Shown: positions 4,392 through 34,947, numbered from the stretch's first letter. The stretch is DNA of 64,000 nt from Candidatus Daviesbacteria bacterium (GCA_028687915.1 JAQTZF010000001.1:1966-65965), one strand, 5' to 3'. The notes: generated by a model not told the origin, from the letters alone. Numbers and translations: made by a program.

Positions 4392-4437
4392 AATAGTATC
4401 TGGTATCTAGTATTTAGTATATGGCAAATATAAAAAA

Positions 4438-4812
4438 ATGGAAAATAATAAAATAAAATCTTTTACTGATTTAATAGCTTGGCAGGAATCACATCAGTTA
4501 GTCCTGATCATTTATAAAATGCTTAAAACTTTTCCCAAAGAAGAGGTTTTTGCTTTAACTGATCAAATGAGAAGATGCTCTATTTCTATTAGTTCAAATA
4601 TTGCAGAAGGATTTTCTAGACAAGGGAAAAAAGAAAAAATGCAATTCTACTATATGGCAAAAGGATCACTAACCGAACTTCAAAACCAGCTCTTAGTTAG
4701 TAGAGACGTGGGTTATATTTCAAAAGAGAAGTTCACTGAAATAGCAGATCAAACAGTATTAGTACATAAATTATTAAATGGTCTGTTAAAATCTTGTTTC
4801 GCAAAATACTAA
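4438..4812 (+). CDS. Four-helix-bundle protein (23S rRNA intervening-sequence protein family, TIGR02436-like; Avd-like fold family)
   Basis: 124 aa. Motifs WQESHQLVLIIYKMLKTFPKEEVFALTDQMRRCSISISSNIAEGFSR ... AKGSLTELQNQLLVSRDVGYI match the family consensus W.KA..L...IY..T..FPK.E.Y.LT.Q.RRA..SI..NIAEG ... GS..EL.T.L.IA...GYI. Confidence 0.8.
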   Translation: MENNKIKSFTDLIAWQESHQLVLIIYKMLKTFPKEEVFALTDQMRRCSISISSNIAEGFSRQGKKEKMQFYYMAKGSLTELQNQLLVSRDVGYISKEKFTEIADQTVLVHKLLNGLLKSCFAKY

Positions 4813-4822
4813 ATACTAAATT

Positions 4823-11751: not shown

Positions 11752-13506
11752 ATGAAAAAATTTATTTATATTCTAATCTTAATAGTAACAATATTTCTTG
11801 CCGTAAGTAATTTTGATAATCTAAAAAACTTTCTAAGCATAAAATCTGAAGAGCAAAAAGTAATTGAGCTAAAAACTAAAAAAGAACCTTTAACCAAAGA
11901 AGAATTAAAGTTCCTTTTGGGGAATGCATCAATCCAAAGTATTAAAATTGGGGAAAAAGAGTACTCTTATATAAATAAAAAAGTTGTGGCTAAAAATCAG
12001 CAAAATGTATCAGAGGGTGAAGAAAGAAAAGTATTACAACTGGCTCTATTTTACCTTAGTGTTAAAGAAGACCCTTTATTTACCAGCCCAGAATTTGAGG
12101 TTAAAGATTTTAATAATTCTATTTCTATTTTAGAGCAGGAACAAACTCAACTTCTTACTGTGGCTAAAAAAAATACTTCTATTTTCCCTCTCACCTTTTT
12201 AAAAACAATTTCTGATGTTTTTGATAAAGAAAAAATGTTTTTGACTGACACTAGTTTGGAAAATGCTCAAAACTTACTAAAAACTTACACATTAACTGCT
12301 TCAGCTTATAAAACAGACATAACCTCTTTTACCAAAGGTCTGGAAGCAAAAAAAGCCTATCTTAGCGAACCAGATGTTATTCAACTCAAAGTAGCTACCA
12401 ATACAGAAATTATGCTTGCTGATTTAAAAAAAATGATGGAAAATGGCTCAATTTTAGAATCAGAGGCACAAAAGAGAACTAATTGTCTAAACTCAGGTCA
12501 AAACTGCAGCAGAGAAATCTTTTTCTTTAAAACCCCGGAAATTACAGAAATTGCAAAAGATAAATTTAGTATGCTTCCTCTTACTATACTGTTCCCAATT
12601 CATCCGGATGAGCCTGAATCATTTCGTAAGCTATATATTATCCACTCCCCTTGTTGGGGCTGGGGGCCTGATTTTTCTTCTCCTGCCAACCCTATGTATG
12701 TTGACCATTCAAACGCTAAATTAATAATAGATGCAGAAGGAAATTACCCAAAATCTTTATCTTTAAAATTGGGCAATCAAAACTTTTACAGAAAAGTGGA
12801 CAATACATCAAATAATATAAATAAAAGTTTATCTGAGCTGGGCCTGCGACGGGTTTTACAATCAGAAACAGCCGGTTACCTTTGTAGAAACCTGGAATAC
12901 CAGCCAATGTCAGCAACCATTGATGCTTTTATCAGAGAGTATAAAGATAAACCAATTCTGGGTGGTTTAGATGCAAAAATAGCTAAGTTTGAAAATAACT
13001 TTTTAAATTCTGCCACACCGGCAGATACAGACCTTATTACATTAAGTAAAATTTACAGTTCTGTTTATAAAGATTTGTCTTCCAAAAATTTAAACCCGGA
13101 ATTACAAAACGAAAGCCTAAAAAGATATTTGATGATTAACAGGCAACTATTAGGTTTTCCTAAGATATTAAATAAATCTGCCAATGAATTTTCCCGCTTA
13201 ATTCAACTCCACGAATCTCAACCTGATGTCTTTAAAGAAGAAGGTACTTTTTATGCCTATGTTTTCCCATTTAAAAGTTACTGGAACCTTTTATACTTCC
13301 CTTTTTCTCCTTCCTTCTGGAGATCAGATGCCCACCCTGAATATATAAAGAAGATTGTAATTAATAGTAGCTTTCCCATAAACCAGAAAACATTTATTAC
13401 TTATCCGGAAGCACAATCTATTGCAAACCCGGAGGAAATTAATAGATGGTCCATAGAAGGTTATAAATATACCCTGGAAAAACTGCCACCAACTAGGATT
13501 AACTAA
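11752..13506 (+). CDS. Hypothetical secreted/membrane-anchored protein
   Basis: 584-aa ORF with an N-terminal hydrophobic helix (MKKFIYILILIVTIFLAVSNF). Its stop overlaps the start of the downstream ABC ATPase gene. No recognisable motif. Confidence 0.55.
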   Translation: MKKFIYILILIVTIFLAVSNFDNLKNFLSIKSEEQKVIELKTKKEPLTKEELKFLLGNASIQSIKIGEKEYSYINKKVVAKNQQNVSEGEERKVLQLALFYLSVKEDPLFTSPEFEVKDFNNSISILEQEQTQLLTVAKKNTSIFPLTFLKTISDVFDKEKMFLTDTSLENAQNLLKTYTLTASAYKTDITSFTKGLEAKKAYLSEPDVIQLKVATNTEIMLADLKKMMENGSILESEAQKRTNCLNSGQNCSREIFFFKTPEITEIAKDKFSMLPLTILFPIHPDEPESFRKLYIIHSPCWGWGPDFSSPANPMYVDHSNAKLIIDAEGNYPKSLSLKLGNQNFYRKVDNTSNNINKSLSELGLRRVLQSETAGYLCRNLEYQPMSATIDAFIREYKDKPILGGLDAKIAKFENNFLNSATPADTDLITLSKIYSSVYKDLSSKNLNPELQNESLKRYLMINRQLLGFPKILNKSANEFSRLIQLHESQPDVFKEEGTFYAYVFPFKSYWNLLYFPFSPSFWRSDAHPEYIKKIVINSSFPINQKTFITYPEAQSIANPEEINRWSIEGYKYTLEKLPPTRIN

Positions 13507-14261
13507 TGAATACACTTATCCAGGTAAAGCACCTTTCATTTTCCTACCTTACCAGAACTGGTTCATTTACAGCTTTAAAAGACCTCTCTTTTGAAATAAA
13601 TAAGACAGAATTTGTTTGTATTATTGGCCCTTCAGGTTGTGGCAAAACCACTCTTTTAAACTGTTTAGCCGGGCTCCTTAAACCAACCCAGGGAGAATTT
13701 TATTTAAACGGTCAAACAGCTGTGGTTTTCCAAGACCCACTTCTTTTACCCTGGAGAAATGTTTTAACGAATATTACTTATGGTCTGGAAATTCAAAAAA
13801 TAGATCCTCAGGAAATTGCCAAAAGAGCTAAAAAGATACTATCCACCCTTAAGCTTGCTGATTTTGCCCATTTTTACCCCCATCAGCTCTCCGGAGGAAT
13901 GAAACAAAGAGTAAACTTAGGCCGGGCACTTATTTGTAATCCAGATATTTTACTGCTTGATGAGCCGCTCTCCCATCTTGATCCTCAGACCAGAGAACAA
14001 ATGCAGCTTGAAATCCTAAGAATCTTTGATAAAGAGAAAAAAACTTTTATCTTTGTCACCCACTTAATTGAAGAAGCAATCTTTTTGGCAGACAGATTGA
14101 TAATTTTAGGTAAAAGTCCCGGAACAATTAGAGAAGTTATTAAAATTAATTTTAAACGGCCAAGAGATTTAACCTTAAAACACAACCGTAAATTCCAGAA
14201 CATGGAAAAATTAGTGAACGATATATTAACTTCAGAAGGTGCTGATGAGGAAAATCCATGA
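13506..14261 (+). CDS. ABC transporter ATP-binding protein (NitT/TauT nitrate/sulfonate/bicarbonate-type)
   Basis: Walker A GPSGCGKTT, ABC signature LSGGMKQRVNLGRAL, Walker B LLLDEPLSHLD. 251 aa, typical for SsuB/TauB-like ATPases. Confidence 0.85.
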   Translation: MNTLIQVKHLSFSYLTRTGSFTALKDLSFEINKTEFVCIIGPSGCGKTTLLNCLAGLLKPTQGEFYLNGQTAVVFQDPLLLPWRNVLTNITYGLEIQKIDPQEIAKRAKKILSTLKLADFAHFYPHQLSGGMKQRVNLGRALICNPDILLLDEPLSHLDPQTREQMQLEILRIFDKEKKTFIFVTHLIEEAIFLADRLIILGKSPGTIREVIKINFKRPRDLTLKHNRKFQNMEKLVNDILTSEGADEENP

Positions 14262-15031
14262 ATAGAATTTTTAAAATTTATCAAAATCAGCAGCATTTTT
14301 TTCTTGGGTTCACTGGTGCCCTTATTTTCCTAACCATATGGGAGATTATTACCAGGACAAAAATAATCAATCCCATCTTTCTAAGTCCACCCACAGAAAT
14401 CTTACAAACAGAATGGATCCTTTTTACATCCGGTAAAATCTTTCCTCATCTTTTTATATCTTTACAAGAATTTTCATTAGGTTTTGCCATAGCAATAATT
14501 CTTGGAGTATCTTTGGGACTGCTCATTGGTTGGTATAAAAAGATAGAAGCTTTAACTTCATCACTTATCTACAGCCTTTACTCTACCCCCAACATTGCTT
14601 TGCTACCATTGATCATTATTTGGACCGGACTTGGAATATGGTCCAAAATTATTGTGGTTTTTCTGGGAGCATTTTTCCCAATCTTAATCAATACTATCGC
14701 GGGGGTTAAAAACCTAGATCCTAATTTAGTTTCTCTTGCCCGCTCATTCGGGGCAACAGAAAGTCAAATATTCAAAACAATTATTTTTCCTGCATCCCTA
14801 CCCTATATTTTAACCGGATTTAAACTAGCTATTCCCCGAGCAATGATTGGAATGATTATTGGGGAATTCTTTGTTTCCAATCAAGGACTGGGATATTTAA
14901 TTACTTTTTACGGTTCAACCTTCCAAACAGCAGAGATTCTGGCAGTAGTTGTAATTGTAGTAATTATTAGTGTTTCCCTGACTAAACTATTGTCATATCT
15001 GGAAAAACATTTTCAATCCTGGAAAGTTTAA
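14258..15031 (+). CDS. ABC transporter permease (SsuC/TauC-like, BPD_transp_1)
   Basis: 257 aa, ~6 TM segments, EAA-like loop region (ARSFGATESQIFKTIIFPASLPYILTGFKLAIPRAMIGMIIGEF). Translationally coupled (4-nt overlap) to the upstream ATPase gene. Confidence 0.8.
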   Translation: MNRIFKIYQNQQHFFLGFTGALIFLTIWEIITRTKIINPIFLSPPTEILQTEWILFTSGKIFPHLFISLQEFSLGFAIAIILGVSLGLLIGWYKKIEALTSSLIYSLYSTPNIALLPLIIIWTGLGIWSKIIVVFLGAFFPILINTIAGVKNLDPNLVSLARSFGATESQIFKTIIFPASLPYILTGFKLAIPRAMIGMIIGEFFVSNQGLGYLITFYGSTFQTAEILAVVVIVVIISVSLTKLLSYLEKHFQSWKV

Positions 15032-16308
15032 TCTAAATGAGAAACTATTTTTTTGTGTTTACTACTCATCGGAAAGCTATTGATAAACTCCACCTCTAAC
15101 GGTTTAAATATCTCTTCGGAAACCAAACTGGCTAAAGTGCGCCTGGCAGATAAATACAGCTCCTCACTAAATCCTTTTACTATTAATTTTATTAGCTTTT
15201 CTGACTTACCCTGATAACCTTTTTTTAAGATAAGCTGTAACTTTAACCTTGGAATTATTTTTTCTTTTTCTAAATCCTCAAAGACGTGTAACTGGAATTT
15301 AGGTGATGATAGATATTGTTGGAAAGGAAGCAGGGCTTTTTCTACTAAGTCTGCATAAATAAAAACTCCATGTATTTTTAAAGCATCATAATTAATTCTA
15401 CCCAATATTTTAAATCTTTCTTTTTGGCCACACCCACAATCATAATCCTCTACTTCTATTGCATCACCTGTTTTGTACCTAATTAATGGAAACCCATTTT
15501 TATATAAATTAGTAAGAAAAAGTTCGCTGTCTCCGCTTGAATTAATAACTTCATAATAATAATTTGAAGATTTATGGAAGTAATTAGTGCTAAGAGTATC
15601 CAGGCACCCACAACTTAAACCAATCGCCCCTCCCTGGGCTTCTGACATTCCATAATTATAAATAAACCGCGTGTTTTTAAATTTTTTCTTAAATATCAAA
15701 TCCTTTTGTTTGGAACAAAATTCCCCAATTAATGAAATTCTTTTAATATTATCTAAACTATATTCTTTTTCTAAAAACGGTATAAAAAAATATAGGGCTG
15801 TTGGTGAAGTTACAAGTAAATCTATTTTTAATTTGGCAGCAATTTTAGCTGAAAGCGGTAGATTATTAATATCACCTAATACACAAACCGCATTATCCTT
15901 TATTCTTTTTCTATCAAGTAAATGCATGGCAGCTTGATGTGGAGATAATAATTTCATTATAGATGTTACATGAAAGTCATCCCTCGACTTACCTCCTTTA
16001 TCTTTATAAATTTGCCTGGCAAGATTTTGCTGTCTAAATACCACAGATAAAGAGTTTATATTTTTGGTAGTACCACTGGAAATACTCACTGTCCCAAATT
16101 CACTCCAGGGTAAATAAAATCTGCTAAAGGGATCAGAACTAACCAATTCATCTTTAGTTAAATATGGAAGTTTTTTAAAATCTTCCATACTATTAATATC
16201 TTTAATTAAATTTATTCCAGCCTTGGTATATTTATCTTTATAAAAAGAAGAATAAGGAGAGTTCCAGACAAACTCTAATATTTTTTTAATTTTTGAATCT
16301 AATTTCAT
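15028..16308 (-). CDS. PaaK/CapK-like adenylate-forming ligase (phenylacetate-CoA ligase / coenzyme F390 synthetase family), paralog 1
   Basis: 426 aa. N-terminal FYKDKYTKAGINLIKDINSMEDFKKLPYLTKDEL matches the PaaK pattern (YR..F...GV.P.DI.SLEDL.KLPFT.K.DL). SSGTT motif (ISSGTTKN). Size typical of PaaK (~430 aa). Confidence 0.75.
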   Translation of the reverse strand: MKLDSKIKKILEFVWNSPYSSFYKDKYTKAGINLIKDINSMEDFKKLPYLTKDELVSSDPFSRFYLPWSEFGTVSISSGTTKNINSLSVVFRQQNLARQIYKDKGGKSRDDFHVTSIMKLLSPHQAAMHLLDRKRIKDNAVCVLGDINNLPLSAKIAAKLKIDLLVTSPTALYFFIPFLEKEYSLDNIKRISLIGEFCSKQKDLIFKKKFKNTRFIYNYGMSEAQGGAIGLSCGCLDTLSTNYFHKSSNYYYEVINSSGDSELFLTNLYKNGFPLIRYKTGDAIEVEDYDCGCGQKERFKILGRINYDALKIHGVFIYADLVEKALLPFQQYLSSPKFQLHVFEDLEKEKIIPRLKLQLILKKGYQGKSEKLIKLIVKGFSEELYLSARRTLASLVSEEIFKPLEVEFINSFPMSSKHKKIVSHLD

Positions 16309-16309
16309 T

Positions 16310-17599
16310 CTATTGGTGATAAATAATATTTATATTTTTAGGGGGCACATATTCTATGGATTGAACAAACTCTACCTCTATAGGCAAAAACCTTTTTTGC
16401 TTAACTAATTCTTCAAGACTTTCCATGGATTCAAAAAATAATTTTTGATTTATAGCTTTTACTATCTTTTTTTTAGCACTGCTTTTATTAATACCTTTTC
16501 CCAGCATTAACTGAAAATGTAATCTGGGTAATTTGTTCTTTTTATCTTTTTCATATATATGTAATTTCCAGTTAGAAATATCTAAAATATCTTTTTGAGA
16601 AACAATTAAATCATCAATTGGTTCCGGATAAAAATAGATTCCTCCTGCTTTAATGACATCAGTTCCAATCCTTCCAAAAACCTTTATTACCTCTTTCTCC
16701 CCACACTGACAATCTTCTATGTAGCTTTTAACCATATCCCCTGTTTTATATCTGATTAAAGGCAACTCTCGTGAATTATCCAGATGTGTTACTACTAATT
16801 CACTTTCTTCTTTTGGATTAATAAACTCATAATATAAATGTGGTCTGGGATGTAAAAGTTGTGGAGATTGTTTAACCAGGTACTTACAGCTTCTTCCCAT
16901 ACCACCAACTCCTGTAGCAGCATACTTAAGATTAAAATAAGCGTTGGGAAACTTTTCCTTAAAATAACTGAGCCTTTCACTGGAACGATATTCCCCTCCC
17001 ATACTTATATACTTAATCTTTTTTAAGTCATAAAATTTTTCAAGATGTGGAAGTAACCTGGTGAGATTAGAGGGTGATATTATCATCGAATCTACCCGAA
17101 GTTTTGACATTAACATAGCAGTTGATGGCATATTATAAAGATTAGCTAAATAACGGTTAATACTTTTATGCCTTATTTCCAGAGAATCTAAATAAATAAC
17201 CGGCACAAGAAAAATCATGCAGCTTTTAACCCCTAGCTCCACTGCCTTCTGAGACATTTTCTTAGTACGGGCGTTTAACTCATTTGCTCTTAAGATAACC
17301 ACCCGATTTTCAGACGTAGTACCGCTTGAAATACTATAAAGTTTAAATTTATCAATTGGTAAATAGAACCTGTCAAACGGATCTGAATTGATAAAATCTT
17401 CCCTGGTTAAATATGGAAGTTTTTTAAAATCTTCCATGCTATTAATATCTTTAATTAAATTTATTCCAGCCTTGGTATATTTATCTTTATAAAAAGAAGA
17501 ATAAGGAGAGTTCCAGACAAACTCTAATATTTTTTTAATTTTTTTAAAGATAACCTCTTCTCTACTCTTTTTCATAATGCTAATATAACAGATACTCAA
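16310..17599 (-). CDS. PaaK/CapK-like adenylate-forming ligase, paralog 2 (true start may be Met9 at 17575)
   Basis: 429 aa. The N-terminal block LEFVWNSPYSSFYKDKYTKAGINLIKDINSMEDFKKLP is identical to that of paralog 1. ISSGTTSENRVVIL motif. Confidence 0.75.
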   Translation of the reverse strand: MSICYISIMKKSREEVIFKKIKKILEFVWNSPYSSFYKDKYTKAGINLIKDINSMEDFKKLPYLTREDFINSDPFDRFYLPIDKFKLYSISSGTTSENRVVILRANELNARTKKMSQKAVELGVKSCMIFLVPVIYLDSLEIRHKSINRYLANLYNMPSTAMLMSKLRVDSMIISPSNLTRLLPHLEKFYDLKKIKYISMGGEYRSSERLSYFKEKFPNAYFNLKYAATGVGGMGRSCKYLVKQSPQLLHPRPHLYYEFINPKEESELVVTHLDNSRELPLIRYKTGDMVKSYIEDCQCGEKEVIKVFGRIGTDVIKAGGIYFYPEPIDDLIVSQKDILDISNWKLHIYEKDKKNKLPRLHFQLMLGKGINKSSAKKKIVKAINQKLFFESMESLEELVKQKRFLPIEVEFVQSIEYVPPKNINIIYHQ

Positions 17600-17605
17600 A
17601 CCATT

Positions 17606-18673
17606 ATGAAGAATATCTATTTTACCTTAGGGCCCTCCCAACTTTTTCCAGGGGTGGAAGGTTTTGTAAAAAAAGCTTTAAGTGAAGATATTTTATCTCT
17701 TTTTCACCGTAGTCCAAAAGGTCAGGATATTTATCAAAGTGCAACAGAAAATTTAAAGATTCTTTTAAATATTCCGAAAGATTTTCATATTTTCTTCTTA
17801 TCTTCCAGTACAGAAGCAATGGAAAAAATACTGGAAAATTGTGTAGAAAAAAACAGCTTTCATTTTATTAACGGAGCTTTTTCTGAAAGGTTTTATGAAA
17901 CCGCAACTGAATTAAAAAAGAAACCACTTTTTTTAAAAGCCCCACTTGGAGAAGGTTTTGATTTTACAAAAGTAAAGATTCCTTCTAACACTGAAGTTAT
18001 CTGCTTTACCCAAAATGAAACAAGTACCGGAGTTGCTCTAAATCCAAATGATATTTATAGATTTAAAAAGCTGCATCCTCAAAAGTTAATTGCTGTTGAT
18101 ATTGTGTCCTCAATACCCACTATTGACCTTGATTACTCGATGATTGATTTATCCTTCTTCTCAGTCCAAAAAGGCTTTGGCTTACCAGCAGGGCTGGCAG
18201 TATTAATTGTCAGCCCTCAAGCTTTTAAAAAAGCCATGGAATTAAAAAACAAAGGATTAAATATTGGCAGTTATCATAACTTTGCCAACTTACAACACTA
18301 TGCACTTAACAACCAAACAATGGAAACACCAAATGTTTTAGGGCTTTATCTTTTAAATAAAGTTGTTACAAAAATGTTAAAAATAGGGATTAAAAGTATA
18401 AAACAGCATACAGACAAAAAGGCTAAACTTCTATATGATTTTTTTGATAGTGATAAAAGGTTTGAGCCATTTGTGAAAGATAAAAATCTTCGCTCTAAAA
18501 CAGTAATTGTTATTAATGTTCAAACAGACTCTCAGCAAATCGCAGAGAAACTGGCAACCAATGGTATTATCATTGGTACAGGTTACAAGCAATTAAAATC
18601 AAGCCAGATCAGAATTGCAAACTTTCCAGCTCATAACCTAAAAGATATAAAAAAGCTAATTGCTAATCTTTAA
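17606..18673 (+). CDS. Class V aminotransferase, phosphoserine-aminotransferase (SerC)-like
   Basis: 355 aa. FSVQKGFGLPAGLAVLIV resembles the SerC PLP-lysine region (AGAQKN.GPAGL..VIV). C-terminal GYKQLKSSQIRIANFPAHNLKDIKKL resembles SerC (G.RASIYNAMP.EGV..L). Confidence 0.65.
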   Translation: MKNIYFTLGPSQLFPGVEGFVKKALSEDILSLFHRSPKGQDIYQSATENLKILLNIPKDFHIFFLSSSTEAMEKILENCVEKNSFHFINGAFSERFYETATELKKKPLFLKAPLGEGFDFTKVKIPSNTEVICFTQNETSTGVALNPNDIYRFKKLHPQKLIAVDIVSSIPTIDLDYSMIDLSFFSVQKGFGLPAGLAVLIVSPQAFKKAMELKNKGLNIGSYHNFANLQHYALNNQTMETPNVLGLYLLNKVVTKMLKIGIKSIKQHTDKKAKLLYDFFDSDKRFEPFVKDKNLRSKTVIVINVQTDSQQIAEKLATNGIIIGTGYKQLKSSQIRIANFPAHNLKDIKKLIANL

Positions 18674-18723
18674 ATTTCTTACATGATTGATTTATGGATT
18701 ACTTTATGTAAGAATCCAAATCA

Positions 18724-19767
18724 GTGAAAAAGAATATTGCGGTCGTTGTTGGTATATTATTAATTCTGTTGGTTGGGGCCTACATTTTTGGAAAAAATAA
18801 ATTGATTCCCTCTTCCTCTGTTACACAACAAGATCAGTCACTTGTAACAACCAATAACACTCCTTCAAAGATGACACTCATTACTACTAATGTTAAATCA
18901 AATCAAATTCCAATAGTTGTGGCACTCAAAAAAGGTTTTTTCCAAAAATATAATATAGAAACCAATATCGAAGAAGTGCCGAAAAATTCTCTTCAAGTAT
19001 TAGTTTCCGGAAAAGCTGATGCTATATTAATTACTCCTAATATAGCTTTGGCTGCTGCTGTAGAAGGAGCTGAAATTTCTTGGATTGGAACAGTTAACAA
19101 CAACAATAATTGGGTGGTTGTATCAAATAAAAATATTCAGGAAATTAAAAGCATGGGTGTTCTTAGCGGGCTGGATAAAGTTAATTCTCTAAGTCTCCTT
19201 CAACTTTTAAAGGTTAATACAGATAATATCCAGTTTCAGGAACTAGCTGATACACAAACAAAATTAACTGCCTTAAAAGAAAAACAAGTAGATTCTGTTG
19301 GTGTTGCCAAAACTGACTGGCTTTTATTCAAAAAGAAGTTCAATCTTTCTGATGATTATCAAATTATTTTAGACTCCTCCGTAAACCAGGATGCAGCTTT
19401 ACCAATTGCAGTAATTGCCAGAAATGGATTTTTAGAAGATAAAAAAACTTCTGAAAATTTTATCCAAGCATTAGTTGAAGCAGACTACTGGATAAAAAAC
19501 AAGGAAAATAAGGAAGAGTTAATAAAGTTGATTTCAGAATTTTATCCAAATATGCCCTCTGATGATGCTGTGGTATATGCCGATGTTTATCTCTCTACAC
19601 TTGCTGGCTTAAATCCCATTCCTGATATCAAAAAAGGAGAAAACATATTAAAACTTATCAATAACATAAACCCTAAAGCCAGGGATTATGATATTAATAA
19701 ATTTGTATCTACAAAAATAATTACATCTCTTAAAGAGTCTGGTTTTTTAAATCAATTTAACTTTTAG
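18724..19767 (+). CDS. Membrane-anchored ABC substrate-binding protein, NMT1/SsuA-like (paralog A)
   Basis: 347 aa. N-terminal TM anchor. Blocks LTALKEKQVD, EADYWIKN and NPKARDYDINKF are shared with the two downstream paralogs. Lies adjacent to the NitT/TauT-type ABC genes. Confidence 0.6.
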   Translation: MKKNIAVVVGILLILLVGAYIFGKNKLIPSSSVTQQDQSLVTTNNTPSKMTLITTNVKSNQIPIVVALKKGFFQKYNIETNIEEVPKNSLQVLVSGKADAILITPNIALAAAVEGAEISWIGTVNNNNNWVVVSNKNIQEIKSMGVLSGLDKVNSLSLLQLLKVNTDNIQFQELADTQTKLTALKEKQVDSVGVAKTDWLLFKKKFNLSDDYQIILDSSVNQDAALPIAVIARNGFLEDKKTSENFIQALVEADYWIKNKENKEELIKLISEFYPNMPSDDAVVYADVYLSTLAGLNPIPDIKKGENILKLINNINPKARDYDINKFVSTKIITSLKESGFLNQFNF

Positions 19768-19812
19768 AAAAAGATTGACACTTTCTATTTATTATGTAAA
19801 AATACCTCACCA

Positions 19813-20835
19813 ATGAAAAAAGGCTTAAAGATTATTCTTCCGCTCTTATTTGTTGTAATAATTGGATCCTTGTTTTTTATAAAAAACAGTAATACAAATA
19901 CCCTTTCTGCTCAAAAACCCCCTGAGACAGTCAAACCAAAGATTACCCTTGTCTATTCACTCCGGGTTAACCAATTACCAGTAGCCATTGCTTTTGAAAA
20001 AGGATTATTTGATAAATATAATCTTCAGGTAGAAACCACTCAAGTCATTACTAATTCAGTTTCTGTTCTAAGTTCCGGTAAAGCAGATGTTTCCCTTGGT
20101 TCACCCAATATATCCTTAACATCTGTAACCCAGGGATCAGAGTTATCATGGATAGGTAATGTTAATAACGATCAGGGAACTGTTTTAGTATCCACTAAAA
20201 CTCCTGCAAACATTAAAACTGTGGGAGTAATCAGTGGCCCGTCAAAAGTACAAACAATTGGTCTGCTTGACCTTATCAAGGTTAATACTGAAAATTTAAT
20301 TTACCAAAACTTTAGTGATGGAAAAACAAAATTAACTGCCTTAAAAGAAAAACAAGTTGACGCAATTCATATCGCCAAACCAGATTGGCTTATTTTTAAA
20401 GAAAAAGCAGGATTATCAGATGAGTATAAAGTATTGCTGGATTCTGCAAGTTATAAAGAAGCGCAAATGCCTGTTTCTATTATTGTTAGAAATGAGTTTC
20501 TAAAAAATAATCCTCAAATAGTAGAAAATTTTACCAAAGCATTAATTGAAGCAGATTACTGGATTAAAAATAACAAAGAAGAATTTATTAGTATTTTACA
20601 AAAACGTTACGCTGATGTACCACCCGAAGATATAAAAATTGAAGCTGAATTATACTTTGCCAATATTCAAAATTTAGAATTTAGCCCCACACAAGAAAAA
20701 GGCAAAGAAATGCTTAAGCTAGTAACAGCAGCTAACCCAAAAGCCAAAGATTACGATATAAATAACTTTATAAATACAGGTATTGCTGATTCGTTAAAAA
20801 GTTCAGGTTTCTTAGATCAATATAATTTAAATTAA
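19813..20835 (+). CDS. Membrane-anchored ABC substrate-binding protein, NMT1/SsuA-like (paralog B)
   Basis: 340 aa, about 40-50% identical by eye to paralog A (KTKLTALKEKQVD, ALIEADYWIKNN, NPKAKDYDINNF). Confidence 0.6.
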   Translation: MKKGLKIILPLLFVVIIGSLFFIKNSNTNTLSAQKPPETVKPKITLVYSLRVNQLPVAIAFEKGLFDKYNLQVETTQVITNSVSVLSSGKADVSLGSPNISLTSVTQGSELSWIGNVNNDQGTVLVSTKTPANIKTVGVISGPSKVQTIGLLDLIKVNTENLIYQNFSDGKTKLTALKEKQVDAIHIAKPDWLIFKEKAGLSDEYKVLLDSASYKEAQMPVSIIVRNEFLKNNPQIVENFTKALIEADYWIKNNKEEFISILQKRYADVPPEDIKIEAELYFANIQNLEFSPTQEKGKEMLKLVTAANPKAKDYDINNFINTGIADSLKSSGFLDQYNLN

Positions 20836-20841
20836 TAAATC

Positions 20842-21879
20842 ATGAATAACAAAAAAATATTATTATCTATAGTGGTATTACTTATCCTTGGCCTTAGCGC
20901 TTTCTTTTTCTTTATTAACTTTAATAAAACTCCAAGCCCTGTAAATACAAAGCCAGCTCCCTCTAGGATAAGCGTTGCCTATATTAGTTTTAATAAAATG
21001 TATGGCATCCCTTTAATAATCGCTGAAAATACTGGACTATTTAATCAATATAATCTTTTAGTGGAGACCAAAGCTACTGATAAAAGCCCGACAAAACTAC
21101 TCGTCGCAAATCAGGTAAATACAATTTTAAACACTCCTTTTGCCCCACTCACAGCAAATACTGAAGGAGCAACCCTTTCCTGGGCCGGAACAATATTTAA
21201 TGATTCGCCTATCGTCTTAGTTTCTTCCAAAGAACCTCAAAATATCAAAACTGTAAGCTACCCTGCCGGAGGAGGAGTCCTGGGTAAAACCAGAACTATT
21301 CAATTATTAAAAGCACTTAATTTGGATCCCGCTAAGATTGTTCTAAATGAAGTTAGTTCAGAACAAATAGCTATGACCACTCTGACAGAAGACAAAGTAG
21401 ATGCTGCTGCAAACATTACAAAAAGTGACTGGTTAATTTTTAAGAAAAAAAATAACTCAGAAAATAATAAATATAAACTCTTAGTCTACTCTGTTGAAAA
21501 AGAAAACCTGCAAATAAGCGGCGGCATTATCTATAGCAAGGATTTTTTAACCGATAATAAGACAACTGCTGAAAACTTTAGTAAAGCCTTAATTGAAGCT
21601 ACCGCCTGGACACGTCTGAATAAAGAGAAAGCAATTGATATATTGGCTAATAAATATTCTATTGAGAAAGACGAAGCAGAAATTTATTGGGATGAGTTTG
21701 TTGCTGTAACAAATAATGTAACTTTTGCCCCTAATTTAGACCAGGCTGAAACACTTTTACAAATCATTAAAACAACAAATCCTAAAGCAGAAACATACCA
21801 GGCAAGTTCTTTTATCTCTACTGACATAAACAACTCTTTAAAGAACAGCGGTTATTTGGAAAAATTCGGATTTAAATAG
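20842..21879 (+). CDS. Membrane-anchored ABC substrate-binding protein, NMT1/SsuA-like (paralog C, more divergent)
   Basis: 345 aa, same architecture. Shares TKSDWLIFKKK, ALIEATAW and NPKAETY blocks with A and B. Confidence 0.55.
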   Translation: MNNKKILLSIVVLLILGLSAFFFFINFNKTPSPVNTKPAPSRISVAYISFNKMYGIPLIIAENTGLFNQYNLLVETKATDKSPTKLLVANQVNTILNTPFAPLTANTEGATLSWAGTIFNDSPIVLVSSKEPQNIKTVSYPAGGGVLGKTRTIQLLKALNLDPAKIVLNEVSSEQIAMTTLTEDKVDAAANITKSDWLIFKKKNNSENNKYKLLVYSVEKENLQISGGIIYSKDFLTDNKTTAENFSKALIEATAWTRLNKEKAIDILANKYSIEKDEAEIYWDEFVAVTNNVTFAPNLDQAETLLQIIKTTNPKAETYQASSFISTDINNSLKNSGYLEKFGFK

Positions 21880-23149
21880 TTTCAACAAAAATCGATTTCT
21901 GCTTGGGAGAAATCTGAAAGCCATCTACAAATTCTATTTTTAAAGCAGAAAACATTTTCTCTTCTACCAATTGAGAAAATGTTTTACCAGACAAAAAATG
22001 AATATTATCACTAACTAGTTTTTCCAGATCTGACTTAATATTTTTATTAAAATTATCTTTAACAATAAGCTGTAACTTAAATTTAGGAAGAGATTTATCC
22101 TTAATGGAATTTGTTATAAATAATTTCCAGGCAGCAGCGCTTAAGTATTTACCAAGAGGATATATAGCTTTATCTATTTGCTCTCTGTAGATTAGATTAC
22201 CTTTTACTCTAACATTATCCATTCCAATCCTGCCATAAATCTTCATCTTCATACTCCTTCCACATTCACATTCTTCTTGATAAACTTTTGCCATATCCCC
22301 TGTTTTATATCTAATAATAGGAAACTCTGTCTTAGTATAAAGACTTGTAAGAACTAATTCACTTTCCTCTTCCGGATTATTTACTTCAAAATAGGTATAT
22401 TGTGTTAACGGATGAACTATATTCTCTGGTGGCTTATTATTATAGAAATCACAAACATAACTCGTTGCCCTGGACTCTGTTAAATTATAGGCAAATCTAA
22501 AATAAGCGTTCTTAAATGTCTTTTTAAAATAATCAAACCTTAAAGGTGAGCAAGGCTCTCCACCAACGCTAATATACCTAATTTGATCTAAAGCTTTTTG
22601 TTTTATCAGATGTGGGATTAGTTGCTCCAAAATAGAAGAGGTAGCAGCAAACCCTTCAATTCTTAATTCCTTAATAACTATGGCAGCGTTCTCTAGATTG
22701 TGAATACTTCCCAAATAACGAGTAATACTTTTATCCTTAAACGCAGGTCTGTTTATTGCCCAGGCAGCAGATGATACTACTACAATCATTGCTGTCTTGA
22801 TTTTTAAATCAAGAGCTTTTTGCACAGCCAATTTATCTGCCGGGTGAGGAAAACCTGCCTTCAGCATAATTAAAATCCCTTTACCTCCTGTAGTGCTGCT
22901 ACTAAACTGGGCACCTTTTATTTTTTCTTTAGGAAAATAAATCCTCTCATAAGGATCAGTCTTAATAATTTCTTCCCGCGTAAGGAATGGAAGTTTTTTA
23001 AAATCTTCCATACTATTAATATCTTTAATTAAATTTATTCCAGCCTTGGTATATTTATCTTTATAAAAAGAAGAATACGGAGAGTTCCAGACAAACTCCA
23101 AAACCCGACGAATCTTTTTAAAATCAGAACTTGTTTGAATATTTTTCAT
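21872..23149 (-). CDS. PaaK/CapK-like adenylate-forming ligase, paralog 3
   Basis: 425 aa. The same identical N-terminal block (LEFVWNSPYSSFYKDKYTKAGINLIKDINSMEDFKKLP). SSSTTGGKGILIM motif. Confidence 0.75.
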   Translation of the reverse strand: MKNIQTSSDFKKIRRVLEFVWNSPYSSFYKDKYTKAGINLIKDINSMEDFKKLPFLTREEIIKTDPYERIYFPKEKIKGAQFSSSTTGGKGILIMLKAGFPHPADKLAVQKALDLKIKTAMIVVVSSAAWAINRPAFKDKSITRYLGSIHNLENAAIVIKELRIEGFAATSSILEQLIPHLIKQKALDQIRYISVGGEPCSPLRFDYFKKTFKNAYFRFAYNLTESRATSYVCDFYNNKPPENIVHPLTQYTYFEVNNPEEESELVLTSLYTKTEFPIIRYKTGDMAKVYQEECECGRSMKMKIYGRIGMDNVRVKGNLIYREQIDKAIYPLGKYLSAAAWKLFITNSIKDKSLPKFKLQLIVKDNFNKNIKSDLEKLVSDNIHFLSGKTFSQLVEEKMFSALKIEFVDGFQISPKQKSIFVETI

Positions 23150-23197: not shown

Positions 23198-23473
23198 TTA
23201 AAAGAATCCACCACATCCAACAAATAAACAATCAGCTGGATTTTCAGACTTCTCAAAAACAATATTTTGGGATTTATCGCTTGATGCTTTATCTACATTT
23301 TTAGAAAAACAATTTAAGGAGTCCCCTGCACGTTGAGGTACGCTCTGTGTTGGCTGGTTAATAACAAGGTTAATTATTGGACGCCAATAATCTTCTTTAG
23401 ATATAAAAATTAATAAACTAAATATTGGTAGTATTGTAAAAAATAATATAACTTTTTTATTAATCTTTTTCAT
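23198..23473 (-). CDS. Small membrane-anchored hypothetical protein
   Basis: 91-aa ORF with an N-terminal TM helix. No similarity recognised. Confidence 0.35.
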   Translation of the reverse strand: MKKINKKVILFFTILPIFSLLIFISKEDYWRPIINLVINQPTQSVPQRAGDSLNCFSKNVDKASSDKSQNIVFEKSENPADCLFVGCGGFF

Positions 23474-23525: not shown

Positions 23526-26201
23526 CTATTTAATAAATTTAATTGAAGATAAAATTGTGTCCAGCTGCTTCATGTTTTTATCACCTACAGGTGTAACTTT
23601 GAGGTGTAGGATATTTTGTTTTTGAGTTAATATAAATTCCAAAGTCTGAGATCCGTTTGCTTCCACCCAAAAAGCTGCTGTAGCATCAAATCCAGGAATT
23701 TCTGCTAAGCCTTTTTTATCTAATTTACCAGAGAACTTAAGCAAACTTTTAGCTACCCAATCCTCAGATTTGCCTGTTAGTGTTCCCCCATAAAAACTAA
23801 TTACAAATTCACTATCAGGTGTTGATAAAGTAGCTACCCCATTTTTTTCAATTATTTTCCAATCCCCCGGATACTTAAAAGAGAACTTTTGAGTTTTTTG
23901 TTCGTATGATTTCCAGTCAGCACTGATTGAACCTGCCAAAGCTTGCCCAGTTATTTTTGCCAGTTCATTTTGGGCTTCCTGTTTGATCTGTGGATTGATT
24001 TCACCCAAACCAACCAAATATTGAAGCTGTTTTTTAGCCTCTTCTGTTTGTCCCCCAGCCTCATAAGCCTTGGCTAAATTTAACCTAACTTCCAAAGCAG
24101 TAGGATCAGCATCCACAGCTTCCTTAAAATATTTTATAGCAGAAATTAAGTCACCTTTGTTTGCGGCAAAGATCGCCATCCTATTAGTAACCTCCACAGA
24201 AAAAGGAGCAATAGCATAAGCTTTTAATATATAATCTTCAGCTTTCTTTAAAGCAGCTGTCTGCTCTTCTTTAGAAGGCGCACTTTGTGAAATACCAAGC
24301 AAATAATCCTCCATCGCAATATAACTCATCCCATATTCCTGTAATAACAGATGATAGGCAGCATTGTAATTTCTTTCCAAATAAAATGGTTTATGTTCAA
24401 AGAACTTGGGATCTTTAAATTTATAATTAAAAGAATCATCAGAAGGAGTTAATAAATCATCAGCTGTTAACATTCTATAAGCTAAACCACTAATCACCGG
24501 CTTTAAAATCTTGGGATCAGGTTTATATTTACCTTCATCAGTTCCAGCAAGTACTGTTTCCCTAAATACCATCGGGGTCACATAAACAGGATGTCCGTGA
24601 TCGATTAACCATTTAATATACCAATTCATTACCTCGTTATACTCTTCCAAACGATCTTTTTTAATCATATCTTCCAGCTCTGGTGGCATTAAATCAGGAC
24701 GGTGGGTGCGTAAATTATCCCTATACCAAGGCAAGATATACCACATATTTGCAACAACCGGAAAAACATCATTTTTACCCAAAACATCATATTGATAAAA
24801 AGTTAAGGAATTAAAAAAATCACCAGAGCCTATAAGAACAGCCCCCCTGGGCAAATTTGAGTATAAGTTGTCTGCATACTCCAGAGTAGTAATATGTGAA
24901 CTTCTATCCAGTTTTGGCAGCCACCAAATAAGAGGAATAAGCACAATTAAAACAAGCGCTAAAAATATAGATTTAGGATTTAGGAATTTTTGCTTTAAAC
25001 TGATTAAAATCTTTATTAATAGACTGAGACCTGTACCTATCAAAATAGTAAAGATAACATAGCTGGCAATAAACCAACTTTCCTGATTTCCAGAAAGATA
25101 TAACCCCCCAAAAATCAGGTTGGTTATAGGAACTGAGATGAGCATTAAAAATAATCTCCAGTTTTTTCTCAATAAATAATAGCCACCCATTAAAATTAAG
25201 GGCACTAATACCGGAGTGAATTGCAAAAACAAAAGGTAAAAATATCTGCCTACTGATTTAGCAAAAATTTGTGATGAACCGGTAAACCCATTTATTGAAT
25301 TTGTTCTGGGATCATTAATGTCTAATCCTTCCCCTTTCAAATGTCCCCAGAAAAGTTCTGGTGTTTGAGGGTCTCCCCAATTTAAGAGTGGGTGCTGCAG
25401 GGCTCTGATGGGCAAATAAGAGTACACCAGAGCTGTTAACCCCAGCACAATTGCCACCACTAAAATAAATCTCTTAATTCCTACTTTTTTCCAGAAAAAA
25501 GTACCTGCGATAATAAGCGCCGGTACAGCCTGTACAATTGTGGGGTTAGTGCCGGTTGAGAGTCCCAAAATAACTGCTCCTAAGATTAAACGTTTGGTGG
25601 AGATTTTACCTGATTCAGGAATCAAAATTACTAATCCCAATAAAGATATCATCATTAAATTAGTTAAGATATAGCTTTCTGTATTTAGAGATTGAGACCA
25701 AAATTGATATGAAAAAGCTAAAATTAAGGTTGAAGCCAAACTGATGGCCTGAATCATCAGAGGTGTTAACTTGAGCATATTCTTAAAATAGCCTGTGAAT
25801 AGATTTTTATCTTCCCTGCCTTCTTTTATAAGCGAAGCTTGAAAACTTCGTTTGAAAGATGAGCTTTCAAACTTGTTTACAAAGAAAAAATTATTACTGA
25901 TTAATTTAACCAGCAAAAAATAAACCCAGGTTAAAACACCAAGAGCAGCAACAATTGATAAAAGCTGCATCCTAAAAAGTACTGAACCAAATGGGATTTT
26001 AGTAAACATGTGACCAACCATCACATAAAATGGAAACCCTGGTGGATTGGGAATGCCAGGTTCAAATGCAGCCGCAATCATTGTGCCTGCATCAATATAA
26101 AGAATAGAAGGAGCTAAGGTTTTTAAATAAATTCCCCCACAAAACAACCAGATAATTAAGATAAAGGGTAAATGAGGAAATTTACGAAGCATATTTTTCA
26201 T
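23526..26201 (-). CDS. Polytopic membrane glycosyltransferase-like protein (DUF2723/GT-C-like) with C-terminal TPR repeats
   Basis: 891 aa. N-terminal LYIDAGTMIAAAFEPGIPNPPGFPFYVMVGHMF resembles the DUF2723 signature (D.GE.IA.A...G..HPPG.PLF). More than 10 TM helices, then a soluble C-terminal region with TPR-like helices (AYHLLLQEYGMSYIA..., AKAYEAGGQTEEAKKQL). Confidence 0.6.
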   Translation of the reverse strand: MKNMLRKFPHLPFILIIWLFCGGIYLKTLAPSILYIDAGTMIAAAFEPGIPNPPGFPFYVMVGHMFTKIPFGSVLFRMQLLSIVAALGVLTWVYFLLVKLISNNFFFVNKFESSSFKRSFQASLIKEGREDKNLFTGYFKNMLKLTPLMIQAISLASTLILAFSYQFWSQSLNTESYILTNLMMISLLGLVILIPESGKISTKRLILGAVILGLSTGTNPTIVQAVPALIIAGTFFWKKVGIKRFILVVAIVLGLTALVYSYLPIRALQHPLLNWGDPQTPELFWGHLKGEGLDINDPRTNSINGFTGSSQIFAKSVGRYFYLLFLQFTPVLVPLILMGGYYLLRKNWRLFLMLISVPITNLIFGGLYLSGNQESWFIASYVIFTILIGTGLSLLIKILISLKQKFLNPKSIFLALVLIVLIPLIWWLPKLDRSSHITTLEYADNLYSNLPRGAVLIGSGDFFNSLTFYQYDVLGKNDVFPVVANMWYILPWYRDNLRTHRPDLMPPELEDMIKKDRLEEYNEVMNWYIKWLIDHGHPVYVTPMVFRETVLAGTDEGKYKPDPKILKPVISGLAYRMLTADDLLTPSDDSFNYKFKDPKFFEHKPFYLERNYNAAYHLLLQEYGMSYIAMEDYLLGISQSAPSKEEQTAALKKAEDYILKAYAIAPFSVEVTNRMAIFAANKGDLISAIKYFKEAVDADPTALEVRLNLAKAYEAGGQTEEAKKQLQYLVGLGEINPQIKQEAQNELAKITGQALAGSISADWKSYEQKTQKFSFKYPGDWKIIEKNGVATLSTPDSEFVISFYGGTLTGKSEDWVAKSLLKFSGKLDKKGLAEIPGFDATAAFWVEANGSQTLEFILTQKQNILHLKVTPVGDKNMKQLDTILSSIKFIK

Positions 26202-32044: not shown

Positions 32045-32170
32045 TTTGATAAACCCGGCAATGACATATTGTCCCGGGGCCTTTCGACCCTAGTATCGTC
32101 GGCGCTGAAGCGTTTGACTGCTGAGTTCGGGAAGGGATCAGGTCGTTCCGCCTCGCTCAAATCACCGGAC
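32045..32170 (-). rRNA. rrf: 5S rRNA
   Basis: The reverse complement reads CCUGAUCCCUUCCCGAACUCAGCAGUCAAACGCUUCAGCGCCGACGAUACUAGGGUC, which aligns to E. coli 5S CCUGACCCCAUGCCGAACUCAGAAGUGAAACGCCGUAGCGCCGAUGGUAGUGUGGGGUC. Ends are approximate. Confidence 0.7.
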
Positions 32171-32254
32171 GTTTATAATAACAAATTTTGATCTAAGAAT
32201 CAAGAATTAACATTAACAACATGCCTAGAAAAGGCATTCTATTTCTCTTATAAT

Positions 32255-34213: not shown

Positions 34214-34251
34214 GTGCCGAACGATACCGTCCTTGTGGACTGTTGGGTATC

Positions 34252-34285
<34 letters not shown>

Positions 34286-34597: not shown

Positions 34598-34635
<38 letters not shown>

Positions 34636-34865: not shown

Positions 34866-34947
34866 CTCCAACGTGTAGTCTCTGAGGGTTTTTTGATATA
34901 AATATCAAAATCTTCCCTGCTGATTGACTCCACTAACAGATTGTCAC

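Follow-up and report, generated by a model that had tools for sequence, protein, structure and literature searches.

PaaK-like ligases, a NitT/TauT-type importer, a membrane-anchored protein of predicted new fold, and a cysteine-tailed microprotein recur as a gene module in Daviesbacteria and other uncultured Patescibacteria

Candidate phyla radiation bacteria (CPR/Patescibacteria) account for a large share of bacterial diversity, have genomes of about 1 Mb from which most biosynthesis is missing, and are thought to depend on other cells for their living. Little is known of how they obtain and use building blocks, and the majority of the genes conserved among them carry the annotation "hypothetical." A 64,000-nucleotide stretch from the metagenome-assembled genome of a groundwater Candidatus Daviesbacteria bacterium (GCA_028687915.1, JAQTZF010000001.1:1966-65965; the whole stretch is called the window here) raises this question at a single locus: what is served by a NitT/TauT-type ABC importer, three paralogous binding proteins, three PaaK-like ligases, and a SerC-like aminotransferase encoded side by side at positions 13506 to 23149? 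These gene types had been named in an earlier prediction made from the sequence alone (the original prediction), and open reading frame (ORF) listing and profile searches recovered all of them in this interval, where the genes number nine and not the ten contiguous ones that had been counted. The parts for uptake and activation are recognizable, and their combination is undescribed. Together with two further genes they form a conserved module that may import a number of related carboxylic acids by way of the binding proteins, with a separate ligase to activate each and a link to the cell envelope; this is a tentative reading, whose chance of being right we place slightly below even. The ligase clade, the fold of the 584-residue protein, and the microprotein belonging to the module are uncharacterized, and there is a realistic chance that the module is categorically new.

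Relatives of the locus were gathered by exact-protein look-ups and two collection scans and were annotated with BLAST, Pfam, and hidden Markov models; a profile-based locus search was built on a seven-sequence alignment. The families of the module neighbor each other in at least 11 independent loci of uncultured Microgenomates/Patescibacteria, and genome-context comparison thereby bears out the coherent unit that had been proposed. Its borders, however, had been drawn too narrowly: the conserved unit also takes in 11752 to 13506 and 23198 to 23473, encoding a 584-residue protein (unk584) and a microprotein, both of which had been missed. L003 has three ligases, three binding proteins, the aminotransferase, a PMT_2 protein, the permease, and the ATPase. 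Permease and ATPase are likewise accompanied by two ligases and two binding proteins in L008, by two ligases and one binding protein in L001/L015, and by one of each in L005, L024, and L009/L014. L012 is an 85 to 90% relative of the window in which ligase B is absent; L013 holds a ligase C ortholog (L13_lig428) and the microprotein; and L018 and L019, which lie on one contig, hold two ligases, five binding proteins, and three copies of unk584. In the distant loci L025 and L026, ligases of about 25% identity are found with the microprotein, unk584, and a TctC binding protein. Gene order and orientation vary from locus to locus, with protein identities as low as about 25%, which makes chance or simply inherited synteny an unlikely cause of the association. 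The deepest conserved core consists of one or more ligases, the microprotein, unk584, and a binding protein.

Ligases and binding proteins have expanded together. Their numbers are equal in six of the eight complete loci (3:3, 3:3, 1:1, 1:1, 2:2, and 1:1), and in neighbor-joining trees the two families have duplicated in parallel and independently in each lineage. The two ligases of L008 are sisters, and so are its two binding proteins; in L018/L019 the two ligases are sisters, and the five binding proteins and the three copies of unk584 each form a monophyletic group; and the Daviesbacteria group is resolved into ligase clades A, B, and C and binding-protein clades 1, 2, and 3. The parallel expansions, like the divergence in the acyl-pocket segment of the ligases described below, fit the original suggestion that several related substrates are handled.

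The three ligases, all annotated "hypothetical protein" in the source record, are 39 to 44% identical to each other. A profile of 30 ligase sequences matched PDB entry 4R1L with an E value of 3.1e-37 (profile positions 5 to 392 on chain residues 20 to 413) and, near full length, 9S3L (8e-33) and PaaK1 (2Y27, 1.1e-24). The entries 4R1L and 4RVN represent BT_0428 of Bacteroides thetaiotaomicron (PMC9516798). Deposited as a phenylacetate-CoA ligase, BT_0428 is, together with PaaK1 and PaaK2, the closest solved relative of the ligases. The N-terminal microdomain described for PaaK-type enzymes (PMC8388817) is present, and the family motifs comprise an SSGTT P-loop, Y-x-x-[ST]-E, IRYKTGD, GRxxxD, and a C-terminal lysine. 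In ligases A and C the ANL motifs (P-loop, A5, A7, A8, and the A10 lysine) are present, with a P-loop that lacks GxPK; ligase A has SSGTT, YGMSE, YKTGD, and GRxxxD as well as a C/H/C/C site. The residues of this site, Cys233, His246, Cys294, and Cys296, are invariant in the ligases and align to Cys/His/Cys/Cys of 4R1L and 9S3L, and they could form a structural metal site. In the ligase B clade (ligase B of the window, P0012, and P0014), YAATGVG replaces Y-x-x-[ST]-E, so that the Mg-binding glutamate of A5 is lost, and a distinct C-terminal PPKN motif is found.

Compared with the solved PaaK ligases (2Y27/2Y4N/2Y4O and 4R1L/4RVN), the window enzymes share near-full-length homology, the microdomain, an S/T-rich P-loop, YKTGD, GRxxxD, and the C-terminal lysine. 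They differ in that the aryl-pocket loop YG.FTGG.G is missing from the family and a hypervariable segment stands in its place, in that GxPK is lacking, in that PF14535 was not detected, in that no paaABCDE-type catabolic genes were found in the window, and, for ligase B, in the A5 glutamate. Scores on the PaaK models were 56.7 to 63 bits for TIGR02155 (cutoff 646.3) and 76.6 to 80.4 bits for NF041878 (cutoff 700). With about 45 clusters at E<1e-40 in a search of 5.8 billion proteins, the clade is small. It is seen only in uncultured Microgenomates/Patescibacteria, and its named sources are only Daviesbacteria and Microgenomates. LuxE domains, which are acyl-protein synthetases, appear among distant matches of the ligase search and in L026. 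Literature searches returned nothing relevant on the ligase family in Patescibacteria or on 9S3L.

Divergence among the paralogs is unevenly distributed. Residues 101 to 165, which align to the PaaK aryl-pocket loop, are the segment least alike between the paralogs (16 to 38% identity), and the same segment is 69 to 88% identical between close orthologs. The orthologs are L3_lig430, L1_lig434, and L12_ligA for ligase A, L3_lig428 (77% identical) for ligase B, and L3_lig423 (72%), L1_lig426 (51%), and the L013 protein for ligase C. The N-terminal microdomain, by comparison, is 98 to 100% identical among the three paralogs of the window. A diverged pocket loop combined with a shared microdomain points to different acyl substrates and to a common partner or dimer interface; judging from these alignments, the microdomain was probably kept identical because all three ligases fit the same partner or dimerize together.

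The DNA of the microdomain reveals how this identity is maintained. A 114-nucleotide stretch at the 5' end of the three ligase genes, encoding LEFVWNSPYSSFYKDKYTKAGINLIKDINSMEDFKKLP, part of the PaaK N-terminal microdomain, is 97 to 99% identical, with one to three differences that all fall on third codon positions; the remainder of the genes is 45 to 55% identical. Within this stretch the window paralogs share 27 to 30 of 29 to 30 codons, and the L003 orthologs share 13 to 16 of 27 to 28 and keep the amino acids despite their differing codons. Selection at the protein level alone was considered as an explanation for the identical N termini and rejected, since synonymous sites are identical within the genome and not between orthologs. 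The pattern indicates a gene-conversion tract within the genome, and the same homogenization is seen between two of the three L003 ligases. In the close relative L012, the ligase B gene has been deleted exactly between two copies of the repeat (L012 7498 to 7725), from which it follows that the repeat mediates copy-number change as well. The tract is a clean natural case in which one domain of a set of paralogs is homogenized and another diverges, with the same repeat driving gene loss.

The importer is of the NitT/TauT type at the family level. ATPase (ABC_tran), permease (BPD_transp_1), and NMT1/SsuA-like binding proteins are encoded together, and all score above their Pfam cutoffs (PF09084: 33 to 43 bits for the binding proteins, cutoff 20.5). 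No equivalog identity to SsuABC, TauABC, SaoAP/X, or NrtBCD was found. The best NCBIfam models for the ATPase were SaoA (213.6 bits, cutoff 360) and TauB (202 bits, cutoff 357); the permease, which has five or six hydrophobic segments, gave 156.2 bits for SaoP (cutoff 295), 124 for SsuC, and 122 for TauC, all below cutoff; and the binding proteins gave 25 to 70 bits for SsuA_fam (cutoff 163.5) and 23 for SaoX (cutoff 300). The SAO transporter, whose hallmark is selenocysteine/CC motifs (bioRxiv 10.1101/2022.07.06.499078), was examined as a candidate because its models ranked first, and was rejected: the scores are far below cutoff, and the selenocysteine/CC motifs are absent. The window system resembles the known importers (SsuABC, TauABC, ThiXYZ, NrtABCD, and SaoAP with SaoX) in its ATPase and permease homologs and in the NMT1/SsuA fold of its binding proteins. 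Unlike them, it has three transmembrane (TM)-anchored binding proteins per permease (elsewhere up to five) and ligases as partners, and it is without genes for sulfonate/taurine oxygenase, nitrate assimilation, or thiamine salvage.

The three binding proteins are 34 to 45% identical to each other. Each has one N-terminal hydrophobic helix (a TM-like segment at residues 5 to 23 in binding protein 1) and no cysteine, so they would be anchored or secreted and not lipoproteins. Their best solved match is a remote one, 3QSL (E=3e-7). Orthologs were identified for binding protein 1 (L3_SBP347b, 59% identical), binding protein 2 (L3_SBP342, 78%; L1_SBP353, 49%), and binding protein 3 (L3_SBP347a, 66%). 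In L025 and L026 the NMT1 type is replaced by a protein of the TctC/Bug type. Carboxylates are the ligands of the TctC/Bug family, and the exchange of one binding protein for a nonhomologous one of this kind fits a carboxylate ligand.

A precedent for import followed by activation, as originally proposed, comes from distant relatives of the window ligases. P0231, P0236, and P0237 are fusions of 751 to 765 residues in which a LivF-type ABC ATPase is joined to a PaaK-like ligase; their ligase parts belong to the ordinary PaaK branch and carry PF14535. The gene for P0237 (L023 8001 to 10256) lies within a Liv-type importer operon. These fusions are independent evidence that coupling between transporter and ligase recurs in PaaK-family enzymes, and the coupling of such a ligase to a binding-protein-dependent importer in L023 implies uptake followed by immediate activation. 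The Liv system differs from that of the window in its families (BPD_transp_2 and Peripla_BP_6) and in that its coupling is physical, whereas that of the window is genetic. No member of the unk584 or microprotein families was seen among the called genes of L023, a locus at which no search was aimed.

Two proteins of the core are not accounted for by uptake and activation alone. The first, unk584, has a single N-terminal TM helix, four cysteines, and a large, mostly helical, predicted extracytoplasmic body. Its AlphaFold model reaches a pLDDT of 94.6 and has no fold match in the PDB, SGNH proteins included, and no Pfam or NCBIfam family matched the sequence; with high confidence in the model, unk584 would be an extracytoplasmic single-pass protein of a new fold. 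An exhaustive profile search gave 478 representatives of the family at E<=1e-3. Two ligase-free members, in L016 (3418 to 6386) and L017 (4177 to 5568), adjoin one or two arylsulfatase-type genes.

The second is a microprotein with an N-terminal TM/signal anchor, a low-complexity linker, and CLFVGCGGFF at its extreme C terminus (C-terminal peptide ...ADCLFVGCGGFF). Counterparts of 72 to 95 residues were found in L001, L005, L008, L009, L011, L013, L017, L024, L025, and L026, most of them called genes in the source records and all no more than two genes away from unk584 and/or a ligase; the copy in L017 is near the ligase-free unk584. All are built alike, with a positively charged N terminus, a single hydrophobic helix, a linker of low complexity, a single upstream cysteine, and a conserved tail with the consensus [C/I/M][LY]F-x-[GN]-C-[GNS]-[GDS]-[FI]-F. 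The tail cysteine is at position -5 in 9 of the 11 members and at -6 in L008 and L011. In the window, L008, L009, and L026, the genes for the microprotein and a ligase share a strand and are 6 to 48 nucleotides apart. Pfam and NCBIfam gave no match for the family, and neither CGGFF nor CLFxGCGGFF was found in a literature search.

Glycosyltransferases of the GT-C type recur around these two proteins, and they track unk584, not the ligases. A PMT_2::unk584 fusion (P0084 in L011) is encoded beside a GT2 and a ligase; in L021 a PMT_2 gene overlaps an unk584-family gene, with UppS and a polyprenyl synthase near; the PMT_2 gene of L003 lies within the module cluster; and a TMEM260-like gene is found about 7 kb from the module in L005. 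The window itself encodes a TMEM260-like GT-C enzyme directly upstream of the microprotein and on the same strand, which is possibly associated with the module.

The aminotransferase, in turn, is a lineage-specific accessory; transamination recurs among the loci and is not part of the core. The enzyme has a class V domain (PF00266, 92 bits, cutoff 21.5) and the pyridoxal phosphate (PLP) lysine, and it scores below all SerC equivalog cutoffs (TIGR01366, 125.5 versus 401.65; TIGR01364, 111.5 versus 443.6; NF003764, 111.5 versus 253). Its closest solved relative is 3FFR (E=1.4e-90), the "phosphoserine aminotransferase SerC" of Cytophaga hutchinsonii, with which it shares an end-to-end alignment, an N-terminal HR(S) motif, and the FFSVQK context of the PLP lysine (FFSVQKGFG against FFSVQKCFG). 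It differs from 3FFR in being embedded in a ligase/binding-protein cluster and co-oriented with different module genes from genome to genome. Loci with an NMT1/ABC-type importer lack it except for the window, L003, and L012, three closely related loci of the Daviesbacteria type. In the window it stands first in the binding-protein operon, opposite in strand to the ligases and inverted relative to L003, where it is the leading gene of an operon that also encodes PMT_2 and two ligases. The L012 ortholog (7788 to 8852) is full length and in a single frame, with an in-frame TAA near codon 259 that could reflect a pseudogene, a sequencing error, or recoding. L025 has a class III aminotransferase instead. 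The idea that imported acids are transaminated and then activated is consequently not supported as the function of the module: among NMT1/ABC-type loci the enzyme is confined to three, inverted between two of them and interrupted by a stop in one. No 2-oxoacid oxidoreductase (IOR/VOR/PFOR) and no acyl-CoA-using enzyme was found in the window or in any fetched locus, and the window held no acyl carrier protein, MBOAT, or CoA-pathway genes.

For all of the ligases, the transporter, the binding proteins, and the aminotransferase, assignment is at the family level only, and every score is below the equivalog cutoff. The families originally named for these proteins hold at the superfamily level.

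The locus is laid out so that the 13506 to 23149 interval is not a single operon (Table 1). The stop codon of unk584 overlaps the start of the ATPase gene, and the microprotein gene is 48 nucleotides upstream of ligase C on the same strand. The ligases are opposite in strand to the transporter genes and converge on them with 3' overlaps of 4 nucleotides (permease and ligase A, 15028 to 15031) and 8 nucleotides (binding protein 3 and ligase C, 21872 to 21879). Convergent overlaps of the same kind are kept in L001 and L003, leaving no space for terminators between the opposing transcripts. A scan for promoters and terminators gave counts at or below shuffle expectation and was uninformative on operon structure.

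Table 1. Genes of the module, its neighbor, and the 5' repeat, in window coordinates
Feature	Position	Strand	Size, evidence, or remark
unk584 (PHQ59_00030, annotated hypothetical)	11752..13506	+	584 aa; core module member
NitT/TauT-type ABC ATPase	13506..14261	+	PF00005, 111 bits
ABC importer permease, binding-protein-dependent type	14258..15031	+	PF00528, 105 bits
Ligase A (PHQ59_00045), PaaK-family adenylate-forming	15028..16308	-	PaaK models, 4R1L match, motifs
5' 114-nt repeat, ligase A copy	16165..16278	-	Direct repeat family D1; other copies 17414-17527 and 22988-23101
Ligase B (PHQ59_00050), PaaK-like	16310..17599, likely ATG 17575	-	PaaK models
SerC-like class V aminotransferase	17606..18673	+	PF00266, 92 bits
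Binding protein 1, NMT1/SsuA-like, anchored	18724..19767	+	PF09084, 43 bits; PF13379, 37 bits
Binding protein 2, NMT1/SsuA-like, anchored	19813..20835	+	PF09084, 35 bits; TIGR01728, 70 bits (cutoff 163)
Binding protein 3, NMT1/SsuA-like, anchored	20842..21879	+	PF09084, 33.5 bits
Ligase C (PHQ59_00075), PaaK-family adenylate-forming	21872..23149	-	PaaK models, family profile
Microprotein (PHQ59_00080, annotated hypothetical)	23198..23473	-	91 aa; core module member
GT-C glycosyltransferase, TMEM260-like PMT with TPR repeats	23526..26201	-	891 aa; PF11028, 72 bits, and TPR

How might these parts work together? In the reading that we tentatively prefer, membrane-anchored proteins of the NMT1/SsuA type would bind a limited range of related organic carboxylic acids on the outside of the cell, and the NitT/TauT-type importer would carry them inward, which is the direction of transport that we infer. 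Each acid would then be adenylated in the cytoplasm and most likely thioesterified, a thiol being the presumed acceptor, by its own diverged PaaK-family ligase, with one ligase for each binding protein. The activated acids would more likely be bound for, or derived from, the cell envelope than catabolism, since the module is locked to two extracytoplasmic proteins and these recur with GT-C enzymes. The alternative raised originally, that the ligases are CapK-like enzymes of surface-polymer synthesis, is not supported by any capsule genes: no flippase, polymerase, or sugar-nucleotide enzyme is present in the conserved core. An envelope link does emerge, through genes that the original prediction had not named (those for unk584, the microprotein, and the GT-C enzymes).

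Several observations weigh against uptake with dedicated activation. No ligand, acceptor, or downstream enzyme was found. The ligases score about 10-fold below the PaaK cutoffs, and their SSGTT P-loop is without the usual GxPK. The ligase B clade, given its altered motifs, may be catalytically impaired or inactive, and may act as a non-catalytic partner of the other ligases. The one-to-one rule of ligases and binding proteins is broken in two complete loci (2:1 in L001 and 2:5 in L018/L019). Being convergent to the transporter genes, the ligase genes share no transcript with them. L025 and L026 have no ABC permease or ATPase near the module, and given these loci import may not be its deepest conserved function. 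Finally, uptake and activation alone leave the roles of unk584 and the microprotein unexplained.

A first alternative is an acylation of the envelope resembling the Dlt system, which we regard as unlikely and which nonetheless survives best among the alternatives. By this analogy, the ligases would load the thiol of Cys(-5) of the microprotein, in place of CoA, in the cytoplasm before export, and unk584 would transfer the acyl or aminoacyl group to a GT-C glycopolymer or glycoprotein; binding proteins and importer would merely supply acids that the cell cannot make. The DltX microprotein shuttles D-alanine on a conserved C-terminal motif, FXYXXF, between DltB and DltD (PMC12148441), and a formal parallel to DltA/DltX/DltD can be drawn in which the microprotein bears the acyl group on its conserved tail. 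Ligase, microprotein, and unk584 are the deepest trio, persisting in L025 and L026 without permease or ATPase, and the close same-strand adjacency of ligase and microprotein genes is in keeping with such loading. A single microprotein for one to three ligases would suit a common acceptor, as would the identical microdomain of the paralogs; the PaaK clade includes acyl-protein synthetases, namely, the LuxE domains among distant matches and in L026; and unk584 recurs with GT-C glycosyltransferases, UppS, and a GT2. The likeness to Dlt (DltA, DltX, DltB, DltC, and DltD), which consists of an ANL-superfamily ligase, a microprotein with a tail motif, and an anchored extracytoplasmic protein, is nevertheless one of resemblance only. 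The tail, CLFxGCGGFF, is based on cysteine, has no tyrosine, and is not FXYXXF; the ligases belong to another ANL branch; and an importer is present. The conserved core is without an MBOAT, a carrier protein, or a protein of SGNH fold, and no Pfam or NCBIfam match to an MBOAT, a DltC carrier, or an SGNH transferase was obtained among the window ORFs scanned. Moreover, charge distribution predicts the tail to be outside and the ligases are cytoplasmic, so loading would have to precede export, for which no precedent is known. That the microprotein cysteine is an acyl acceptor in the manner of DltX, with unk584 in the role of DltD, is on this analogy doubtful to the same or a slightly greater degree. 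Somewhat less probable than the Dlt-like reading as a whole is that the ligases make no CoA esters, Cys(-5) acting as a single-use shuttle and unk584 as the transferase in a CPR-specific acylation that needs neither MBOAT nor phosphopantetheinyl carrier.

Another reading is the nutritional salvage of fermentation acids into amino acids. A route from acid through CoA thioester and reductive carboxylation to amino acid occurs in methanogens and rumen anaerobes. Imported aryl-acetates or branched-chain acids would be activated with CoA; a ferredoxin-dependent 2-oxoacid oxidoreductase whose gene lies elsewhere would then carry out the reductive carboxylation, and transamination would complete the route. 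The three ligases and three binding proteins of the window and L003 would match the three aromatic or the three branched-chain amino acids. PaaK1 and PaaK2, which are phenylacetate-CoA ligases, together with BT_0428, being the closest solved relatives speaks for this, as do the recurrence of an aminotransferase (class V in Daviesbacteria-type loci, class III in L025), a ferredoxin-domain gene after the permease in L019, and the limited biosynthetic repertoires known for CPR bacteria (PMC7304191). We nevertheless consider it improbable. The required oxidoreductase was not among the genes of the window or fetched loci; the aminotransferase is SerC-like, not of the aromatic or branched-chain type, and missing from most loci; minimal modules have a single ligase; the ligases are without the YG.FTGG.G pocket loop of PaaK; and unk584, the microprotein, and the GT-C link would be left unexplained.

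The tail of the microprotein would also suit a cyclic peptide like the autoinducing peptides (AIPs). Staphylococcal autoinducing peptides contain a five-residue thiolactone ring, and a ring of this size would be permitted in the 9 of the 11 members that have Cys at -5, after which come a flexible G/N-G/S/D pair and then two residues of aromatic or hydrophobic character: a ligase would adenylate the C-terminal Phe, which resembles the aryl-alkyl carboxylates that PaaK uses, and Cys(-5) would close the ring, ATP replacing AgrB. After export, unk584 would release the peptide, and binding proteins and importer would take it back up. The conserved adjacency of ligase and microprotein genes suits this scheme, and AgrD offers a precedent for cytoplasmic loading ahead of export. 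It is very unlikely all the same: in a given locus a single microprotein faces as many as three diverged ligases and five binding proteins, the paralogs differ most at the putative acyl pocket, which speaks for distinct substrates, NMT1 and TctC proteins are not known as peptide binders, and the module has no receptor or regulator gene. No AgrB-like protein was seen among the ORFs scanned, a search that was not exhaustive.

Just as unlikely is the synthesis and re-uptake of a metallophore-like compound, in which the ligases would form amides or esters as NatL2, AjiA1, and ClxA do and the secreted compound would be recovered. PaaK-like amide/ester ligases are indeed among the solved relatives (6WUQ and 6SIW; PMC8388817), L025 pairs three ligase paralogs with a class III aminotransferase and a flavin-dependent oxidoreductase-like gene, and a B12-radical SAM enzyme lies between ligase/unk584 pairs in L018; against these stand the lack of an exporter, minimal modules with one ligase, binding proteins not of the siderophore type, and accessory enzymes that vary by locus. 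Least probable of all is that there is no functional unit and that the genes adjoin only through relatedness and compactness of the compared genomes, a view that can draw on the uninformative promoter and terminator scans, the opposite strands of ligase and transporter genes, and flanking genes common to several loci (such as a giant Peptidase_S74 protein in L001, L005, and L024) but that is met by an association surviving changes in order, orientation, copy number, binding-protein family, and divergence to about 25% identity, and by the fusions PMT_2::unk584 and, among relatives, ABC ATPase::ligase.

Whichever way it functions, the module gives a testable handle on CPR biology, with binding proteins and ligases that are soluble and open to expression and screening, a new fold predicted with high confidence, and a microprotein with an invariant-cysteine tail. 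Should the acids be nutrients, it would define a CPR scavenging route; should they reach the envelope via the microprotein, it would represent a new bacterial way of carrying activated acyl groups across a membrane.

Additional genes accompany the module in L018/L019, at L018 5083 to 6432, L019 3 to 188, and L019 4190 to 4885 (three genes). The B12-binding radical SAM protein of L018, between ligase/unk584 pairs, is closest to the "lipid biosynthesis" model TIGR04072 (302 bits, cutoff 360). In L019 the gene just after that of the permease encodes a QueG/reductive-dehalogenase-like Fe-S protein. A small ORF rich in Cys (...ASCGTACSCPGDCCTGAEG) lies just upstream of an unk584 copy; its Cys-rich C terminus and lack of a signal sequence give the impression of a precursor of a ribosomally synthesized and post-translationally modified peptide, and the assignment should be taken as an impression only.

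Elsewhere in the window, two giant paralogous surface proteins of 1409 and 1597 residues, each with six Laminin_G_3 domains, are encoded at 162 to 9616, and their genes share patches of 76 to 95% nucleotide identity. They are separated by a gene for a 124-residue "23S rRNA IVP"/bAvd-like four-helix bundle (4438 to 4812). A diversity-generating retroelement was considered at this position and rejected, as no pair of template and variable repeats was present and the repeats reflect the paralogy of the giant genes. Pilin-like genes are also carried in the window; with the giant surface proteins, the GT-C glycosyltransferases, and the introns of the 23S gene, they are in line with a Daviesbacteria (Microgenomates) source. 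The rRNA genes lie on the minus strand at 32053 to 44516 in an unusual arrangement: the 16S gene (43046 to 44516) and the 23S gene (33520 to 37153) are separated by about 6 kb, which holds protein genes, among them those for GAPDH (39204 to 40223) and PGK (41237 to 42226), and tRNA-Ile and tRNA-Cys on the opposite strand (42293 to 42460). The 23S gene, 3634 nucleotides long, contains two group I introns (34809 to 35064 and 33917 to 34196), and the 5S gene is at 32053 to 32169. GC skew is positive over 1 to 12 kb and negative over most of the remaining window, and the cumulative skew peaks near 12 kb, beside a GC-rich segment (43% at 10 to 12 kb).

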